Shown here piece by piece: positions 14,838 through 41,250 of a stretch of DNA of 64,000 bases. Position 1 is the first letter of the stretch. The number at the start of each line of letters is the position of its first letter. Source of the stretch: a virus. Taxonomy: Duplodnaviria > Caudoviricetes. A program made the translations under genes and the position numbers. Under the pieces are notes generated by a model. The model saw only the letters and a program-made list of their open reading frames with translations, was not told where the DNA came from and did not search any database. The stretch lies in the IMG/VR virus record IMGVR_UViG_3300040751_000875, positions 1,623 through 65,622 of that record. One strand, 5' to 3'.

Positions 14838-14866
14838 TTTACATTTATGGAAAAGTGTAGTATAAT
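14838..14866 (+). promoter_or_regulatory. Sigma70-type promoter
   Basis: TTTACA-17-TATAAT. Confidence 0.7.
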
Positions 14867-14875
14867 ATACCTATT

Positions 14876-15217
14876 ATGAAGAACAATATCATACAATTTC
14901 CGACTGGGCGAAGACAAGCACAGATTGAGGAAGAAAGGGACTGGGAGTATGAGAACTTCACAGACGAATGTGTAGATACTGCTCAGTTTGCTCTACTGCT
15001 ATTGGAAGATTATATTGATTCAGATGAAGGTAGTAATCTTAAAGAACTTGATTTTAGAAATCCAGAGTACGCAGAGTCCCGTGATATGTTTGTAGTAGTA
15101 AATTTATTGTCTTCTATGTTTATGCGTTATGGTGGTATAAAACACTTCTTGCAAAAAGACCTAGAAACTCTATTCACTAAAATACAAGAAACCCGAGAAC
15201 CTAATGATATTACTTGA
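14876..15217 (+). CDS. Hypothetical protein
   Basis: NIIQFP N-terminal motif; directly after promoter. Confidence 0.65.
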   Translation: MKNNIIQFPTGRRQAQIEEERDWEYENFTDECVDTAQFALLLLEDYIDSDEGSNLKELDFRNPEYAESRDMFVVVNLLSSMFMRYGGIKHFLQKDLETLFTKIQETREPNDIT

Positions 15218-17092: not shown

Positions 17093-17121
17093 TTGACAAA
17101 TACCAATTGATGTGATATAAT
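17093..17121 (+). promoter_or_regulatory. Sigma70-type promoter
   Basis: TTGACA-17-TATAAT. Confidence 0.8.
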
Positions 17122-17128
17122 ATACATT

Positions 17129-17704
17129 ATGAATATTTTTATACTTAACGAAGACCCAGTAATTGCAGCACAAGAACAGTGTGACAAACATGTGGTAAAA
17201 ATGATTGTAGAGTCGGCACAAATGCTATCTACTGTACACAGAATGTTAGACGGCTCGATCGAGCAACGTCCATCCAAATCAGGAAAAAGAATCTTAAAAT
17301 ATTACAAATTACCAGACGAAAGAGAGGACTTGTATTACAAGGCTGTACATCACAATCATCCATGTACTGTATGGACACGCGAGTCTTGTTGTAATTATTC
17401 TTGGCACTATGAACATTTTTGTGCACTTATGGATGAATATACATATAGGTATGGTAAGATACATTCAACGGATACTAAATTAAGAAAGGCCCTAAAACAG
17501 TTGCCAGATAATATCAATAGAACAGGTGGCAGAACTCACTTTAAATTGGCTATGGGTTCTAATCCAGAGTGTGTAGTATATGGGTTGGGTGGTACTGATC
17601 CTGTACAGTCTTACAGAAATTTCTATCAAACAAAGCAATCGAGGTTTAAAATGGATTGGACAAAACGTAAAGTGCCGGAGTGGTTTAACTATGCCGCTGT
17701 ATGA
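17129..17704 (+). CDS. Pyrimidine dimer DNA glycosylase / DenV-like protein
   Basis: MNIFIL..P..AAQ..CDKHVVKM..ESAQMLST, NHPC..W, EY..RYGK.H. Confidence 0.8.
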   Translation: MNIFILNEDPVIAAQEQCDKHVVKMIVESAQMLSTVHRMLDGSIEQRPSKSGKRILKYYKLPDEREDLYYKAVHHNHPCTVWTRESCCNYSWHYEHFCALMDEYTYRYGKIHSTDTKLRKALKQLPDNINRTGGRTHFKLAMGSNPECVVYGLGGTDPVQSYRNFYQTKQSRFKMDWTKRKVPEWFNYAAV

Positions 17705-20073: not shown

Positions 20074-20102
20074 TTGACAAAGTGTGGTATATTTGATATA
20101 AT
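20074..20102 (+). promoter_or_regulatory. Sigma70-type early promoter
   Basis: AAAAAAGTG-TTGACA-17-TATAAT. Confidence 0.85.
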
Positions 20103-20108
20103 ATACCC

Positions 20109-20573: not shown

Positions 20574-20654
20574 TGAGGATACTAGGTTCGGGACATCATA
20601 CAGAGATTATAAACTACCCGGTAATCATCACCCTAGTATCCTCTCTAAAATTAC
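20563..20654 (+). other. Long inverted repeat enclosing a 45-nt loop
   Basis: GTAATTTTTAGTGAGGATACTAGG ... CCTAGTATCCTCTCTAAAATTAC. Confidence 0.75.
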
Positions 20655-34712: not shown

Positions 34713-34741
34713 TTGACAAGTGGTGCTAGATAGGTTATAAT
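34713..34741 (+). promoter_or_regulatory. Sigma70-type early promoter
   Basis: AAAAAAAGTG-TTGACA-17-TATAAT. Confidence 0.85.
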
Positions 34742-34773
34742 AGTACCATAATTAATTGATAAGGAGTTAAATT

Positions 34774-35994: not shown

Positions 35995-37040
35995 AGATAC
36001 TAATGCCATATAAAGCCGATCGAGGATTTGATATCGGAAGTGATATGGTTACCGGTGGTATCGAGAAATTCATATCGGATGTGAACACCAACTTTGATGT
36101 AATACCCGTACGTTTACCTTTAGGTCATTCTAAATTTAATGGAAAGAACCGTAAACAAATTATGGCAGAAGCAGTTGCCCAATATAATCCAGACATCATA
36201 TTTTTAAACAGCATTGAATTAACTGGTGGTATGGTCAGACATGGTATTCCAATTGTTGCAATATTTCACATAGGTATAGAGAAGGGCATTACACTTCTTA
36301 GCAGTTTACCAGCACTTCAAAAGTTAACCAATGAAGGACACCACATATATTTTGTAAGTGAACATCAGCATGATTTCTGGAAATCTAACTCGGAAAGATT
36401 AAAGACACCCTTTGAAATTAAAGGATATATTAACCCATCTTACGTTTCTGTAACAGACAATATATCAAATATTGAGTATGATGTAGGTACGATTGGACGA
36501 TGTTCAACGTGGAAAAGGCCGTTTTTATTACATACCAAGAGTATGGATAACCTTTCTAGTTTAGTGATATCTACTGCCCCTAACGAATCTAGCATGCAAA
36601 AGGAACTAGATTATTATCAGAATAACCTTAATTGGTCACCACCCCAAACAACAATGTGGGACTTACCCCACACCCAAGTAATAAAAGAAATAAGTAAGGC
36701 ATCTGTTTATTGCTCTACCTGCCCCGATGAATCGTACGGTATCACGTCGCTAGAGGCGTTATCTCAAGGATTACCTATTATACTATTATGTGATAAAAGC
36801 ATGAATCATGCGAGCGAATGCATTCCAGCTAGTACTACGCATTATGTGAAGTTATCAAATAAGTGTAGTCCAGAAGAATTTAAGAGTGCCGTAGAATCAT
36901 TACAAGTGCTGGATCGAGCAGAGATTGCACAAATGACTAGGGAAAAACATTCATTGGAGAATTGGAAAAAGTCAATTCAAACCATATTTGAGAATAGGTT
37001 ATCAGATAAAAATATGCATAATTTAATGAACTTTTTTTAA
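35991..37040 (+). CDS. GT-B fold glycosyltransferase (GT4-like)
   Basis: GGIEKF, IGR...KR, ESYGITSLEALSQGLPII. Confidence 0.8.
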   Translation: MKILMPYKADRGFDIGSDMVTGGIEKFISDVNTNFDVIPVRLPLGHSKFNGKNRKQIMAEAVAQYNPDIIFLNSIELTGGMVRHGIPIVAIFHIGIEKGITLLSSLPALQKLTNEGHHIYFVSEHQHDFWKSNSERLKTPFEIKGYINPSYVSVTDNISNIEYDVGTIGRCSTWKRPFLLHTKSMDNLSSLVISTAPNESSMQKELDYYQNNLNWSPPQTTMWDLPHTQVIKEISKASVYCSTCPDESYGITSLEALSQGLPIILLCDKSMNHASECIPASTTHYVKLSNKCSPEEFKSAVESLQVLDRAEIAQMTREKHSLENWKKSIQTIFENRLSDKNMHNLMNFF

Positions 37041-37048
37041 AAAAAGTG

Positions 37049-37077
37049 TTGACAAGTATGTTTTTATGTGATATAAT
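37049..37077 (+). promoter_or_regulatory. Sigma70-type early promoter
   Basis: AAAAAAAGTG-TTGACA-17-TATAAT. Confidence 0.85.
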
Positions 37078-37111
37078 AGTACCTATAATTTAATGGATAA
37101 GGAGTTATTTT

Positions 37112-37390
37112 ATGAATAGATTAGAACTAATCAAAGCGGCCGCAGAAAAGGCCCAGATTAAAAAGGCAATAAACAATGTTGCTGCTCGTAAAGCCGCACT
37201 TAAGGCTGAAATGAAACTTCATAAGAAGTTAACCAAGTCAGTTAAGAAGGCTGAACATCAGGCCCCTAAAAGTTTAGAGGCATTTTCAGAAGAGAATTTA
37301 TATTACACGGATAAGGAAACCAAAGACTATTTGGCAGGAACCTCTTATATGGAAACCTATGAATCAATGAGGAGTCAAGATGAATACTAA
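37112..37390 (+). CDS. Hypothetical early protein
   Basis: TAAGGAG RBS; A/K-rich helix. Confidence 0.7.
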   Translation: MNRLELIKAAAEKAQIKKAINNVAARKAALKAEMKLHKKLTKSVKKAEHQAPKSLEAFSEENLYYTDKETKDYLAGTSYMETYESMRSQDEY

Positions 37391-37553
37391 AATTCACAGT
37401 GTCAGTTTAGAAGTAATTGAAAGGTTGGTAAAAGAAAACACCAATGATTATGATTTAGGCGAAGCGGTACGCGAGTTATATAATAAAATTGTCGACGGGC
37501 CAATTGTCGATGATGCCGGATGTGATATCAAGACAGGGAAGTTCCTAGGATGA
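37380..37553 (+). CDS. Small hypothetical protein
   Basis: GAGGAG RBS; NDYDLGEAVR motif; below ORF track cutoff. Confidence 0.55.
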   Translation: MNTKIHSVSLEVIERLVKENTNDYDLGEAVRELYNKIVDGPIVDDAGCDIKTGKFLG

Positions 37554-37714
37554 TGTCAATGGAATTAGCAGTAACTCGCCTTAATGCTTTAAAACGAGCA
37601 GAGCAAAAGGCAACGAATCCGGAGTTTAAAGAACTGTGGAAAAATAAACGAAAAGAACTTGTTGAATTATTACAATCCGGCAACTCTTATGACGAACATG
37701 GAGAACTATTATAA
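37550..37714 (+). CDS. Small hypothetical protein
   Basis: ATGA coupling; A.NPEFKELW..K motif. Confidence 0.55.
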   Translation: MMSMELAVTRLNALKRAEQKATNPEFKELWKNKRKELVELLQSGNSYDEHGELL

Positions 37715-37908
37715 TGGACTATATAGGTATGTTTTTTGTATTATTTTTTATGTTCCTTTTTAGTTATGTGGGATTTCACATAGCGATTGAAAAGGATATG
37801 AAAAAGCATATACCTTTGCCTTGGGAACCAGGTGGGTTTCTTAATAGGCAAGATGTAAAACCTTTTAACAAGAGCGATATTAAATATCGAGATGGAGATA
37901 ACACATGA
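37714..37908 (+). CDS. Small membrane protein
   Basis: N-terminal TM; IPLPWE. Confidence 0.6.
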   Translation: MDYIGMFFVLFFMFLFSYVGFHIAIEKDMKKHIPLPWEPGGFLNRQDVKPFNKSDIKYRDGDNT

Positions 37909-38147
37909 GTGACGGAAAAATGTCATATATGGAAATCAGTTCTTATTTTGAAAAGAACCGACAGGCTGATGTGATACGAACAGTAGGCCTTAACGAAGAC
38001 AATTATTTTGGAGTACGATATAGTATTGATAACCAGGTGCTAGGCATTGAATGGTATCCTACTAAATCTGAATCCTACTCCGAGAGTGCGGCAGAAAATT
38101 ATGTAATGGGAATAAAGGAATACCCTTCAAATCCTGCACTTGATTAG
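37905..38147 (+). CDS. Hypothetical protein
   Basis: KSESYSESAAENYVMG; GGAG RBS. Confidence 0.65.
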   Translation: MSDGKMSYMEISSYFEKNRQADVIRTVGLNEDNYFGVRYSIDNQVLGIEWYPTKSESYSESAAENYVMGIKEYPSNPALD

Positions 38148-38154
38148 TTTTGTG

Positions 38155-38216
38155 AACCCTCTGATGGCCCCTTCAACTCCTTATCACACGAATGCCATCA
38201 GGGGGTTTACTTTTAT
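38155..38216 (+). ncRNA. Stem-loop with anti-Shine-Dalgarno loop (candidate sRNA or terminator)
   Basis: 14-bp stem AACCCTCTGATGGC/GCCATCAGGGGGTT, 25-nt loop containing AACTCCTTATCA, T-rich tail. Confidence 0.5.
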
Positions 38217-38234
38217 TGAAAAGCGTGGTATAAT
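38206..38234 (+). promoter_or_regulatory. Sigma70-type promoter
   Basis: TTTACT-17-TATAAT with extended -10 TG. Confidence 0.7.
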
Positions 38235-38259
38235 ATACATATCACATTAAGGAGTAATT

Positions 38260-39435
38260 ATGGTTAGTAAAACATTAGAAAAGAAAAGAGTTCAAGGCAG
38301 GAAAAATCGTGTCACCATTGAAGATAAGTATTTAGGCCCAGAGCCATGGTGGGATGAAGATAATCCACCACCTACCGATAAAAGCGGCCGAAGTATTGCT
38401 TGGTCAAAGGCCGCCCATTGGTACGGGTACTTTTTAAAGACTAAGGATTATGTACCCTTTATTATCCGTTATGCAGAAGAAGTCCACGGGTTCAATAACA
38501 CCCAAATTGAAGCTATCAAGGCACTAAAAGATTACGAAATCATGCATCATTGTGGTGCAGTTGCACGTTTACATTTCCGTGGTTGGAATCATGAAGAGGA
38601 ATTGCACCAACGATTACTTGAAGAATTAAATAAAAAGGTAGAGAAAGGTAAAGAGCTCTTAAAAGAAAAGAAAGAAATTAAAAAGACTGCTCCGCCTGTT
38701 ATCAGTCCTGCTCAAAGGGCATATATGAATATGATGGAAACCATTCATGCCGATTGGGATGAAATGGTAATTGATAGTTGGATGGATGGAAACTTTAATC
38801 CAGTCTTTAATGTATACGAATTGTGGAAGAAACACGGCCTGAAAGGTAATGTAATTAATGCCTTTAAGGAAAAAGTTCAAATGGAATATGATATAGTATC
38901 TGATGCTTATAACAATAATTGTGACCAGGCTGTAGAGGCATATTCTCATATCACAAGGCGTAGACAAAAGAAGATGTTGAATCTCATGGATAATATCTTT
39001 GCAGATCTTGATAAATTAAAAGACAGTTTCAAGGCTGTAAGAATGCCTAGAGCTAAGAAACCAAAGTCAACAGATGCCCAAGTTGCAAATCTAAAATACT
39101 TGCAAGAGGACATCGATTCAAAAGTAACCTCTATTAACCCTGTACTAATACCAGGCAAAGAACACTTACTTGTATATAATGTAAAATACAAGTCACTTGC
39201 TCATTATGTCAGTACTGCTACTAAAGGGTTTGAGGTAAGAGGTACTACTCTTTATAACTTTGATGAAAAATTATCGAAGGGAGCAAAATTAAGAAAGCCA
39301 GAAGATGTATTACCTGAAGTGTTGAAACTCACGCCTAAACAAATTGATAAAAGAGTTTGGGATAAATTAACAACGAAGATAGGTAGTCCAAACGGTCGAA
39401 TAAACAAAGACTGTATACTACTTAGAGTAATATAA
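38260..39435 (+). CDS. Conserved T4-like hypothetical protein
   Basis: YLGPEP.W, KGFEVRGTTLYNFD, LRKPED.L, NGRINKDCILLR. Confidence 0.75.
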   Translation: MVSKTLEKKRVQGRKNRVTIEDKYLGPEPWWDEDNPPPTDKSGRSIAWSKAAHWYGYFLKTKDYVPFIIRYAEEVHGFNNTQIEAIKALKDYEIMHHCGAVARLHFRGWNHEEELHQRLLEELNKKVEKGKELLKEKKEIKKTAPPVISPAQRAYMNMMETIHADWDEMVIDSWMDGNFNPVFNVYELWKKHGLKGNVINAFKEKVQMEYDIVSDAYNNNCDQAVEAYSHITRRRQKKMLNLMDNIFADLDKLKDSFKAVRMPRAKKPKSTDAQVANLKYLQEDIDSKVTSINPVLIPGKEHLLVYNVKYKSLAHYVSTATKGFEVRGTTLYNFDEKLSKGAKLRKPEDVLPEVLKLTPKQIDKRVWDKLTTKIGSPNGRINKDCILLRVI

Positions 39436-39442
39436 GGAAGGC

Positions 39443-39679
39443 ATGATTGAGCAAAAAATTATGACACGTAAACGATTCTCTACTGCGGTAGAGAATCTTG
39501 TTTCAGAAGGTAAGGGGTTGTCCTACATTGAGGCAGCTGCTTACTTAATAGAGCAAAGGGGAATGGACTTTAAAAGTCTTAACAGATTGTTGTCTGATTC
39601 CCTTAAACAAAAAATTGAGGCGGAAGCCAGTGATTTAAATTTACTAAGGACTAAACAGACAAATAAGTTACCACTATGA
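39443..39679 (+). CDS. Late promoter transcription co-activator gp33-like
   Basis: FS..VE.LV...LSYIEAA, L...LKQKIEAEA..LNLL; upstream of gp59/gp32. Confidence 0.85.
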   Translation: MIEQKIMTRKRFSTAVENLVSEGKGLSYIEAAAYLIEQRGMDFKSLNRLLSDSLKQKIEAEASDLNLLRTKQTNKLPL

Positions 39680-40263
39680 TGGATCCCTTTGAATCTTATA
39701 AACTATATAATGCATTAAAACTTCATTTTGAAACAGATGGTTACGATGCCGTAAAATACAATTATAAATCAAACGTGACACCCCAGTCATTCTTTAAAAG
39801 AAAGGATAAGTACTTCTTTGCAAAGTTGGCCAAGAAGTATAATGGGAATTTAAAGGACTTTTACATTTCACAATTCGTTAACACAGAATCATATGTTGGC
39901 GATATGATGGATGAAGAGGCAGAAAAGAACTATTTAAATTATAAAAGAATTCAAGAAAGCATACATCGTGTGTTTTCAATTGATATAAATATACTAGGTG
40001 AACAAGAAAGGAAGTTTGATGAGCTCTTTAAGAGTTATCACGGACAACTACCCTTGGTCGTCAAGTTATGGCTTCAAGAGGAAATCAGTTTAGAAACTGT
40101 AGTGATTCTTGATTCCATATTGGGGTTTGTAGAACGTGAATCCGATAATATAACAGATACCATTATATGGCCTGATTTAAAACGGAGAATCAATAAATAT
40201 AAACCCTTCGTAAATTATACGGAAGATAAATGCATGAAGTTGTTGACAAATGTGTTTGTTTGA
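39676..40263 (+). CDS. Helicase loader gp59-like
   Basis: YKLYNALKLHF...YD..KY, F.KRKDKYFF.KL, ISLET..ILD. Confidence 0.88.
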   Translation: MMDPFESYKLYNALKLHFETDGYDAVKYNYKSNVTPQSFFKRKDKYFFAKLAKKYNGNLKDFYISQFVNTESYVGDMMDEEAEKNYLNYKRIQESIHRVFSIDINILGEQERKFDELFKSYHGQLPLVVKLWLQEEISLETVVILDSILGFVERESDNITDTIIWPDLKRRINKYKPFVNYTEDKCMKLLTNVFV

Positions 40264-40271
40264 TGTATAAT
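40243..40271 (+). promoter_or_regulatory. Sigma70-type promoter for gp32
   Basis: TTGACA-17-TATAAT. Confidence 0.8.
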
Positions 40272-40353
40272 ATACATATAATTATGAATAAAGTGAAATA
40301 CAACAGAAACGACTACACTAGAGTCGTAATACAACGCAATACGGAGAAATAAA

Positions 40354-41250
40354 ATGTCATTTGCAAATCTAAAGAGCACTCGAGGCTCGTCAATCGACAA
40401 ACTCGTAAAGGCTGCGGAAGCAGTATCAACTAAAACAGAATCTAATTCCTATGGGGATGACAGATTTTGGAAACCTACCAGAGATAAAGCAGGAAACGGT
40501 TATGCCGTAGTCAGATTCTTACCTGCCAAAGAGGGTGAAGACCTTCCTTGGGTAAGATATTGGGACCATGGTTTTAAAGGCCCTACTGGTCTATGGTATA
40601 TCGAAAACTCTTTAACTTCTATTGGACAAGATGATCCAGTATCAGAGATGAACTCTGTTCTTTGGAACTCTGGTCGTGATGAAGATAAAGCTATTGCAAG
40701 GGAGAGAAAAAGACGTTTACACTATGTAAGTAATGTTCTCGTTGTTTCTGACCCTAGTAATCCAGAAAACGAAGGAAAGGTATTCTTATACAAGTTTGGT
40801 AAGAAAATCTTTGATAAGATTATGGAGTCAATGCAACCTGCATTCGAAGACGAAGATCCTATCAATCCTTATGACTTCTGGGAAGGAGCGGAATTTAAAA
40901 TTAAAATCCGCAAAGTAGAAGGTTGGGTAAACTATGATAAGTCAGAGTTTGCTACACAGTCTGCATTATATGATGGTGATGAAGACAGATTAGAAGAAGT
41001 ATACAATAAATTGTATTCACTTCAGGATTTCCTGGATCCTTCTAATTATAAATCATATGATGAATTGAAATCCAAAATGAATAAAGTTTTGGGTATCGAT
41101 GCAGGTGCTCCTTCTATGGAAATGCCAGAAATGAATGTGGTTGAAGAAACTCCAGTGGCAGCCGTGTCAACGCCTGTTATGGAAGAACCAACTAGTGACG
41201 ATGAGGATGATACATTATCATACTTTGCTAAACTGGCTAAAGAATCATAA
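40354..41250 (+). CDS. Single-stranded DNA-binding protein gp32
   Basis: DDRFWKP..DKAGNGYAVVRFLP, WYIENSLTSIG, KFGKKIFDKI, acidic tail. Confidence 0.95.
   Translation: MSFANLKSTRGSSIDKLVKAAEAVSTKTESNSYGDDRFWKPTRDKAGNGYAVVRFLPAKEGEDLPWVRYWDHGFKGPTGLWYIENSLTSIGQDDPVSEMNSVLWNSGRDEDKAIARERKRRLHYVSNVLVVSDPSNPENEGKVFLYKFGKKIFDKIMESMQPAFEDEDPINPYDFWEGAEFKIKIRKVEGWVNYDKSEFATQSALYDGDEDRLEEVYNKLYSLQDFLDPSNYKSYDELKSKMNKVLGIDAGAPSMEMPEMNVVEETPVAAVSTPVMEEPTSDDEDDTLSYFAKLAKES

Follow-up and report, generated by a model that had tools for sequence, protein, structure and literature searches.

A conserved operon-end hairpin and its co-changing early leaders suggest an RNA switch on early protein synthesis in T4-like phages

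The 64,000-nucleotide stretch of viral DNA analysed here, which we call the window throughout, carries at the 3' end of a five-ORF early operon (promoter 37049-37077) a hairpin whose apical loop is complementary to the Shine-Dalgarno (SD) leaders of the phage's own early genes. This complementarity is correct and far from chance. On the basis of comparison with related phages, the loop most likely base-pairs with early mRNA leaders; the element is genuine, a structured RNA conserved among these phages, and the comparison also supports a particular RNA as its partner. Our preferred reading, held with moderate confidence, is that the hairpin is an operon-end structure that pairs with early SD leaders, most likely lowering initiation on those leaders and possibly marking the mRNAs for decay.

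The source record is a 65.6-kb viral record of 35.6% G+C, in which the + strand carries nearly all genes and for which completeness is estimated at 38% (CheckV). The genes 3' of the hairpin encode a 391-aa protein, a gp33-like late-transcription factor and a gp59-like helicase loader. The closest cultured relatives of the gp59-like protein are those of Methylophilales phage Melnitz and the cyanomyophages, at 37-40% identity, and a DNA-level search of 50,697 phage records returned no match to the window. The source is an uncultured, distant T4-like phage, and public runs containing this sequence carry the labels estuary, freshwater, seawater, marine and marsh metagenome. Neither ribosomal protein S21 nor RegA was matched in the 38%-complete record; the RegA control query matched 0 of 14 control genomes, and these negatives carry no weight. 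The 391-aa protein (38260-39435) belongs to phrog_11903, a family of unknown function, and reaches only 24-34% identity to proteins of phage records, with nothing above cut-off in Pfam and no PDB sequence below E 0.07. Its AlphaFold2 model (pLDDT 78, pTM 0.38) is helical in the N-terminal domain and rich in beta structure in the C-terminal one, and a Foldseek search with the model against the PDB gave no hit at E up to 0.001. The family is widespread in these phages (313 IMG/VR relatives), and the gp33/gp59-like genes are always downstream of it. The features that the analysis draws upon are listed below in order of position.

34713-34741, + strand: early promoter of gene 34774, a perfect 12/12 sigma-70-type promoter (promoter scan)
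34757-34768, + strand: leader/SD TGATAAGGAGTT of gene 34774, 12 nt complementary to the loop
37049-37077, + strand: early sigma-70-type promoter of the hairpin operon, TTGACA-17-TATAAT, 12/12 (promoter scan)
37096-37106, + strand: leader/SD GATAAGGAGTT of the first operon gene (start 37112), 11 nt complementary to the loop
37905-38147, + strand: last operon ORF, 80 aa, no family; its TAG stop (38145-38147) lies 4 nt 5' of the stem
38145-38151, + strand: conserved TA(A/G)GTTT-type sequence (stop codon and U-run) immediately before the stem; 29 of 34 unique hairpins have it
38152-38168, + strand: hairpin 5' arm (fold; compensatory changes counted among relatives)
38169-38193, + strand: hairpin loop, 25 nt (fold)
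38175-38186, + strand: anti-leader motif AACUCCUUAUCA (AACTCCTTATCA), with its exact complement at 34757-34768
38176-38182, + strand: conserved loop core ACUCCUU, invariant in 33 of 34 unique hairpins
38194-38210, + strand: hairpin 3' arm, its end overlapping the -35 hexamer (38206-38211) of the next promoter
38206-38234, + strand: promoter TTTACT-17-TATAAT with extended -10 TG, 10/12, serving the 391-aa gene
38211-38217, + strand: U-rich tail TTTTATT, a possible intrinsic-terminator tail (6 T among the first 8 bases)
38248-38255, + strand: SD TAAGGAGT of the 391-aa gene (38260-39435), 8 nt complementary to the loop and hence a rival target in cis

The hairpin (38152-38210) consists of a 17-bp stem and a 25-nt loop. 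A first-pass annotation of this DNA had described a loop of the same size on a 14-bp stem; the loop stands, and the 14 bp are the core of the longer stem (38152-38168/38194-38210). The + strand folds with -31.6 kcal/mol in a 91-nt context (z -4.4, with 0 of 200 shuffles as good), and the - strand fold of the region gives -24.9 kcal/mol. Within the 64 kb it is the most stable perfect hairpin, at -27.6 versus -16.5 kcal/mol for the runner-up, and it is present in a single copy; the other nine early promoters have no such stem-loop and carry an A/T-rich upstream element. The canonical terminator of the genome, at 41273, is built from a UUCG tetraloop and a long U-tract, and given that tetraloop, the 25-nt loop is unlikely to serve termination alone. 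An Rfam 15 search of 36000-40500 yielded three hits at E up to 10 with no family reaching its gathering score, the hit over the hairpin being mir-136 at 19.8 bits versus a gathering score of 64. RNase E prefers R-N↓W-U-U beside a stem-loop, and the TA(A/G)GUUU that precedes the stem could be a site of this type, marking the 5' end of a processed hairpin RNA.

Two coding uses of the region were considered and rejected. A translated minus-strand ORF with the motif as its ribosome-binding site had been named at the outset as grounds for abandoning the regulatory reading; no ORF of at least 25 aa follows the inverted SD, and no conserved start codon lies at a usable distance. A plus-strand ORF (38140-38250, 36 aa, TTG start) has its frame broken by loop indels of 1, 2 and 3 nt among relatives. 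Elsewhere in the window, a 12-bp hairpin with a 45-nt loop (20575-20643) sits immediately before early promoter 20678, with much the same stability whichever strand is folded (-16.5 and -18.0 kcal/mol), and may represent a further stem-loop/promoter cassette, of a different type.

Both leader sites matched by the loop sit between a perfect TTGACA-17-TATAAT promoter and the first start codon. The coordinates originally given for the complementarity hold, with the motif at 38175-38186 finding its exact 12/12 complement at 34757-34768 and 11 nt at 37096-37106, and ATAAGGAGTT is indeed found before starts 14201 and 22586. When duplex energies with the loop were calculated for the 91 predicted + strand gene starts (median -7.1, sd 3.4 kcal/mol), the 34774 leader ranked first at -17.2 kcal/mol and the 37112 leader second at -16.6 kcal/mol, and the placing of the two best targets behind strong early promoters is borne out by the 12/12 promoters at 34713-34741 and 37049-37077. 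The two leaders are paralogous copies of one promoter-leader cassette and are therefore not independent hits, and when the loop flanks were shuffled 200 times with the core kept, a fraction of 0.08 reached the match observed in the window. The evidence from the window genome alone is thus thin. The + strand between promoter 34713 and the hairpin holds no terminator-like site except a weak 5-bp one, and for want of a convincing terminator between the promoters and the hairpin, the 34774 and 37112 leaders can each belong to an RNA that has the hairpin at its 3' end.

Perfect or near-perfect early promoters with an ATG only 6-12 nt past the -10 and without an SD occur at 14838-14880, 17093-17130, 20074-20105 and 40243-40285, an example being TATAATatacccATG at about 20103. 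These may give rise to leaderless or near-leaderless early mRNAs which, if real, would escape any anti-SD regulation.

For the comparison with relatives we used IMG/VR loci of the 391-aa protein at 48-99% identity; 153 and then 313 were detected, 80 being taken each time, and 72 of the 80 taken from the 313 had enough upstream sequence to be usable. The hairpin is present at the same place between the same two genes in 53 of these 72 loci. In 50, the unconstrained fold places ACUCCU in a hairpin loop enclosed by 10 or more pairs, and three further loci (clade E) show the ACUCCU loop in local analysis. Twelve loci are without the hairpin, 3 have an altered loop and 4 a deleted loop, and 4 of these 7 retain no complementarity; the element is thus dispensable. 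Many loci are near-identical, and the unique hairpins number 34. All of these fold far better than shuffles (z -4.8 to -8.8), and the stems of different clades share no sequence yet always pair. RNAalifold on the close clade reveals changes on both sides in 7 of 16 pairs. The + strand is the more stable in 27 of the 34, and G.U pairs, which would be A.C mismatches on the opposite strand, account for 57 of 649 pairs; together these observations indicate that the + strand is the one that acts as RNA.

In the loop, 33 of the 34 unique hairpins keep the heptamer ACUCCUU without change, the exception reading ACUCCUC, so that the lack of loop conservation, which the first-pass annotation had said would refute its reading, is not what is found. 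The SD core is part of the complementarity and is fixed by the host 16S rRNA, and for that reason conservation of the core alone is uninformative. The hairpin persists over 391-aa proteins that are only 48-54% identical, and an ORF homologous to the 80-aa last ORF precedes it in the relatives read. A promoter like that at 38206-38234 is conserved in clades A, B, C and F and absent in L018, D2, D1 and E. The first 8 bases past the stem contain from 1 to 7 T among the 34 hairpins, and terminator quality therefore varies by lineage. A covariance model built from the close clade (R1) finds clade F, L036 and L018 at E 1e-5 to 0.3 and does not find clades C, D, E and K; the wider hairpin family is defined by structure-guided hairpin calls made with custom scripts. 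A motif scan of IMG/VR returned at least 116 stretches, mostly chance hits.

Some lineages show further peculiarities of the locus. The loop of L177 (1430-1481) and L185 has two ACUCC copies (UACUCCUUUAUUUUACUCCU), and L179 has a further, partial repeat (CUCAUCAAUUUG) after the first; the loops of these lineages may hold two seeds. Upstream of the 391-aa gene in L138/L004, at about 2900-2990, the hairpin-gene promoter is tandemly duplicated, with two copies GTTGACAAA..GTGATATAATATACACATAT, an arrangement that would fit recombination between promoter cassettes.

The variable loop flanks are complementary to the stretch immediately preceding the SD in the early-promoter leaders of the same phage. 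This covariation is visible only with 7-kb flanks; within 1.5-kb flanks, SD context by clade showed no shift. In clades A, B and F the leader (A)AUUGAUAAGGAGU(U) faces the loop ACUCCUUAUCA(AUU), with matches of 12 and 11 nt in the window, 13 nt in L226, 14 nt in L018, 12 nt in L277/L280 and 9-10 nt in clade B. Lineage K (L179/L254) has a changed-core loop, CUCCUCAAUCAAU, and two early leaders reading AUUGAUUGAGGAG/GA. Here the loop makes a 13-nt perfect match to the leader of its own operon's first gene (-20.1 kcal/mol), and the change from AA to UGA in the leader and from UU to UCA in the loop amounts to a one-base insertion on both sides. The loop CUCCUUUUAUUU of D1 (L269) is matched by the leader AAAUAAAAGGAG, which is present twice (-19.6 kcal/mol), the loop ACUCCUUUUU of D2 (L248) by the leader AAAAAGGAGU, and in D3 (L257) the sequence GUAAAUUAA..AAGGAGU is matched by both loop halves. 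Clade C (L245) pairs the loop ACUCCUU-U-AUUUAUA with the leader UAUAAAU-UG-AAGGAGU, and the variant ("degenerate") locus L228 has a loop with UAUCAUUUA and UUCCU that corresponds to its own altered leader, UAAAUGAUA-AGGAA. In every lineage examined, the motif is antisense to the leaders and lies inside a hairpin loop. Often the strongest partner is an early leader 2-3.4 kb upstream of the hairpin, with the leader of the operon itself (0.8-1.4 kb upstream) mostly in second place. These data support the proposal of an anti-RBS loop directed against early leaders of the same phage, for which loop/RBS covariation in related phages had been suggested as a check. The match was also said to extend beyond the core SD; the flanks do match their own leaders clade by clade, while the exact 12/12 match is clade-specific, clade B reaching only 9-10 nt.

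The strength of the extended match differs among clades. When only the flanks were randomised (200 shuffles, core retained), no shuffle equalled the real match in L179 or L018 (0 of 200), and the fraction doing so was 0.01 for L014 and 0.015 for L002; the clade B values, 0.2-0.5, are unremarkable. When six loop groups were permuted against six leader groups, the true assignment ranked 3rd of 720 permutations, with a pairing energy of -98.4 kcal/mol where the mean was -77.4 kcal/mol. Four of the 6 leader groups pair best with their own loop, and in C and D2 other U-rich loops do as well. Since the groups were defined after seeing the loops and the statistic ignores phylogeny, we regard this swap test as supportive of a co-change of loop and leader, not conclusive. 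In the L088 sub-clade, the own-operon leader has become GAUGAGGAA with the loop unchanged, leaving 9 bp with wobble, and another early leader keeps 10 nt. Finally, the clade F loci L276, L281, L283 and L036 show no extended loop match in the sequence at hand.

The RNA-library data consist of assembled metatranscriptome contigs from four runs, at depth 1-14, which cover parts of 37109-39600. The contigs start at 37109-37142 in three runs, and 36900-37081 is covered by no RNA-library run (contigs, depth 1-14). A contig that stops at 38154 and another that runs across the hairpin (38125-38311) are both shallow, and DNA carry-over is possible. As these are contigs only, which show neither RNA ends nor levels, and may include carried-over DNA, the metatranscriptomes count neither for nor against a small RNA.

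Several other explanations have to be weighed against pairing with early leaders. The GC-rich stem, the U-rich tail and the 3' arm lying over the -35 of an early promoter would also suit a plain PeSL-type terminator/attenuator that insulates the early operon, its pyrimidine-rich loop being conserved as a protein site (for S1, Hfq or a translational repressor, for example), and the arrangement fits the PeSL architecture as set out in the pertinent part of PMC2839356. However, the PeSL definition includes no conserved loop, the hairpin occurs once in 64 kb with nine other early promoters lacking such a stem-loop, and a protein site is not expected to co-change with the leaders of each clade. Moreover, with a tetraloop in the canonical terminator (41273), loops of 17-33 nt would be costly for termination, and we consider this explanation unlikely. 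The neighbouring gene offers a target in cis, in which case the loop would pair as a pseudoknot with the SD of gene 38260 in read-through RNA, and the gene would be translated only from its own promoter, like T4 e, soc, 49 and I-TevI. The complementarity to this SD, some 60 nt downstream, runs from 8 nt in the window to 10 nt in clade B, the synteny of the hairpin with the 391-aa gene is strict, and one RNA-library contig spans 38125-38311. Against this, L018, D1, D2 and E have no intervening promoter, and their downstream SD is weak or absent with at most 4 nt of complementarity; the downstream RBS of lineage K, ACAGGAAAC, has no match versus 13 nt with the upstream leader; in clade C the loop reads CUCCUUU and the downstream SD is still UAAGGAG; and the 391-aa gene falls outside the 12 best loop partners in the window. 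Masking of the adjacent gene's SD was rejected on the grounds that this SD shows no covariation with the loop (L018/D1/D2/E, clade C, lineage K), and we hold such a role in cis to be quite improbable.

A protein that reads the motif as double-stranded DNA would give a similar pattern by a different route, one phage regulator binding downstream of the early promoters and, in inverted orientation, upstream of promoter 38206, where some 55-66 bp separate the motif from the expected start downstream of it. Sites and protein changing together would also explain the co-change of leader and loop within a genome. It is difficult to reconcile an operator, however, with a motif that is inverted relative to the leaders in every lineage, that always occupies the unpaired loop of a stem covarying with + strand G.U pairs, that is present without a downstream promoter (L018 and the D and E clades), and that stands at varying distances from the promoter. 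The 391-aa protein, without a Pfam, PDB or Foldseek match, lends the operator idea no support, and we judge it very improbable. Chance, finally, would predict that any CUCCUU-containing loop matches strong SD sequences; a complement of the SD core is expected to match ribosome-binding sites, and the two best targets in the window are paralogous cassettes. Conservation over 48-54%-identical proteins, covariation of the stem and clade-specific extended matches make this scarcely credible.

Returning to pairing with the early leaders, the hairpin would form the 3'-terminal structure of the early operon mRNA, with the shape of a leaky terminator/attenuator of the PeSL kind, and its large apical loop would form a duplex of 10-14 nt (about -15 to -20 kcal/mol) with the SD leaders of early mRNAs. 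The partners would include the 5' leader of the hairpin-carrying transcripts and the paralogous early leaders. Pairing would cover the ribosome-binding sites and result in less translation initiation on the early leaders, and the paired mRNAs may in addition be marked for decay. The effect would start only after the 1-3.4 kb operon had been transcribed to its end. The interaction could be an intramolecular one between the 5' and 3' ends, as in icaR or hbs, or it could take place in trans through a 3' hairpin that outlives the mRNA and survives 3' exonucleases, which is the model that the first-pass annotation had put forward. Considering that both leaders can head RNAs ending at the hairpin, intramolecular pairing is allowed, and trans action is equally allowed. 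Consistent with an icaR-like arrangement, a 3'-UTR anti-SD motif faces an SD of what promoter and terminator scans indicate is the same transcript (11 nt with the 37112 leader, 13 nt in L179), and the partners co-vary (3rd of 720, own loop best in 4 of 6 groups). Consistent with a trans-acting small RNA, the conserved seed has complementary targets on other transcripts. Pairing in vivo, repression and the intramolecular (icaR-like) or trans mode are what we infer from these data; so is the sign of the effect, given that the hbs pairing can protect its mRNA.

In a more far-reaching form of the trans model, the 3' hairpin would outlive the mRNA as a small RNA of about 65-70 nt, whose loop would out-compete the 16S anti-SD (10-14 versus about 7 bp) on every cassette-type early leader, seed and leaders co-evolving by clade. 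We regard this as tentative and, on balance, doubtful. If true, it would do with RNA alone what RegB does in T4, the shutting off of early mRNAs, and would be the first regulatory RNA to act in trans in a T4-type phage. The original interpretation, a feedback timer acting through a 3'-UTR-derived small RNA, is partly supported as a whole, the discrete small RNA, its action in trans, the repression and the timer role being putative parts of it.

The conserved hairpin and its co-changing leaders suggest an RNA switch on early protein synthesis. The analysis defines by sequence an RNA element in at least 53 environmental T4-like contigs, with fold and RNA partner backed by comparison, and it offers a concrete idea, cheap to test, of how early gene expression may be held down in phages that have no known RegB-type nuclease. 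The 5'/3'-UTR pairing known from bacteria (icaR, hbs) would thereby be extended to phage operons, where the cassettes of early promoter and leader can evolve in concert with a 3' element far away.

Hairpin loops that pair with the SD regions of several mRNAs are familiar from the C-rich loops of staphylococcal RNAIII and RsaE and from the c4 antisense RNA of phages P1 and P7, the last being processed from a transcript shared with its target. Those are dedicated sRNA genes or processed sRNAs that have been shown experimentally, whereas the phage hairpin is known from its sequence. In T4 itself, as the relevant sections of PMC3014915 describe, SD-sequestering local hairpins time the translation of genes e, soc, 49 and I-TevI. 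The present element resembles these in that RNA structure is predicted to hide an SD in a T4-type phage, but the T4 hairpins are local and hold the adjacent SD, whereas here an anti-SD loop lies 1-3.4 kb downstream of its best partners and changes in the loop are not mirrored in the SD of the neighbouring 391-aa gene. In the T4-type PeSL, as described in part of PMC2839356, a strong sigma-70-like early promoter adjoins or is overlapped by a GC-rich stem-loop that acts as a terminator/attenuator, and an SD and start codon come next. The overlap of the hairpin 3' arm with the -35 hexamer (38206-38211) agrees with this description. PeSLs, however, are repeated and mobile combinations of a promoter with any stem-loop, as far as that account goes, whereas the phage hairpin is syntenic and has a conserved leader-complementary loop; in place of many repeats in plastic regions, a single copy is found.

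Pairing between the ends of an mRNA has bacterial precedents, which together with the PeSL cassettes are the nearest analogues of the phage element. In hbs of B. subtilis, according to the portion of PMC5737220 concerned with it, a 14-bp long-range pairing of both mRNA ends modulates RNase Y cleavage and stabilises the mRNA; the long-range 5'/3' pairing is shared with the phage element, but the hbs SD is not masked. In icaR of Staphylococcus aureus, a pyrimidine-rich 3'-UTR anti-SD motif pairs with the SD region of its own mRNA, blocking initiation and creating an RNase III substrate, as reported in the corresponding part of PMC3868564. The likeness lies in a 3'-UTR anti-SD motif opposite an SD region of the same mRNA. 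The predicted phage pairing differs in that the motif is in the apical loop of a terminal hairpin on a polycistronic early operon and faces several paralogous leaders over 10-14 nt. Among phages, small RNAs are reported for lambda-type, Pseudomonas and filamentous phages, and T2 uses a host sRNA, in those parts of the literature that we drew upon. According to the 2010 review of post-transcriptional control in T4 (PMC3014915), functional characterisation had been achieved for neither a riboswitch nor a small trans-acting regulatory RNA of that phage. A literature search, which was not exhaustive, found no description of a phage terminal-hairpin loop complementary to early leaders. Taken with these comparisons, the hairpin would be the first candidate for anti-SD pairing of this kind in T4-type phages.
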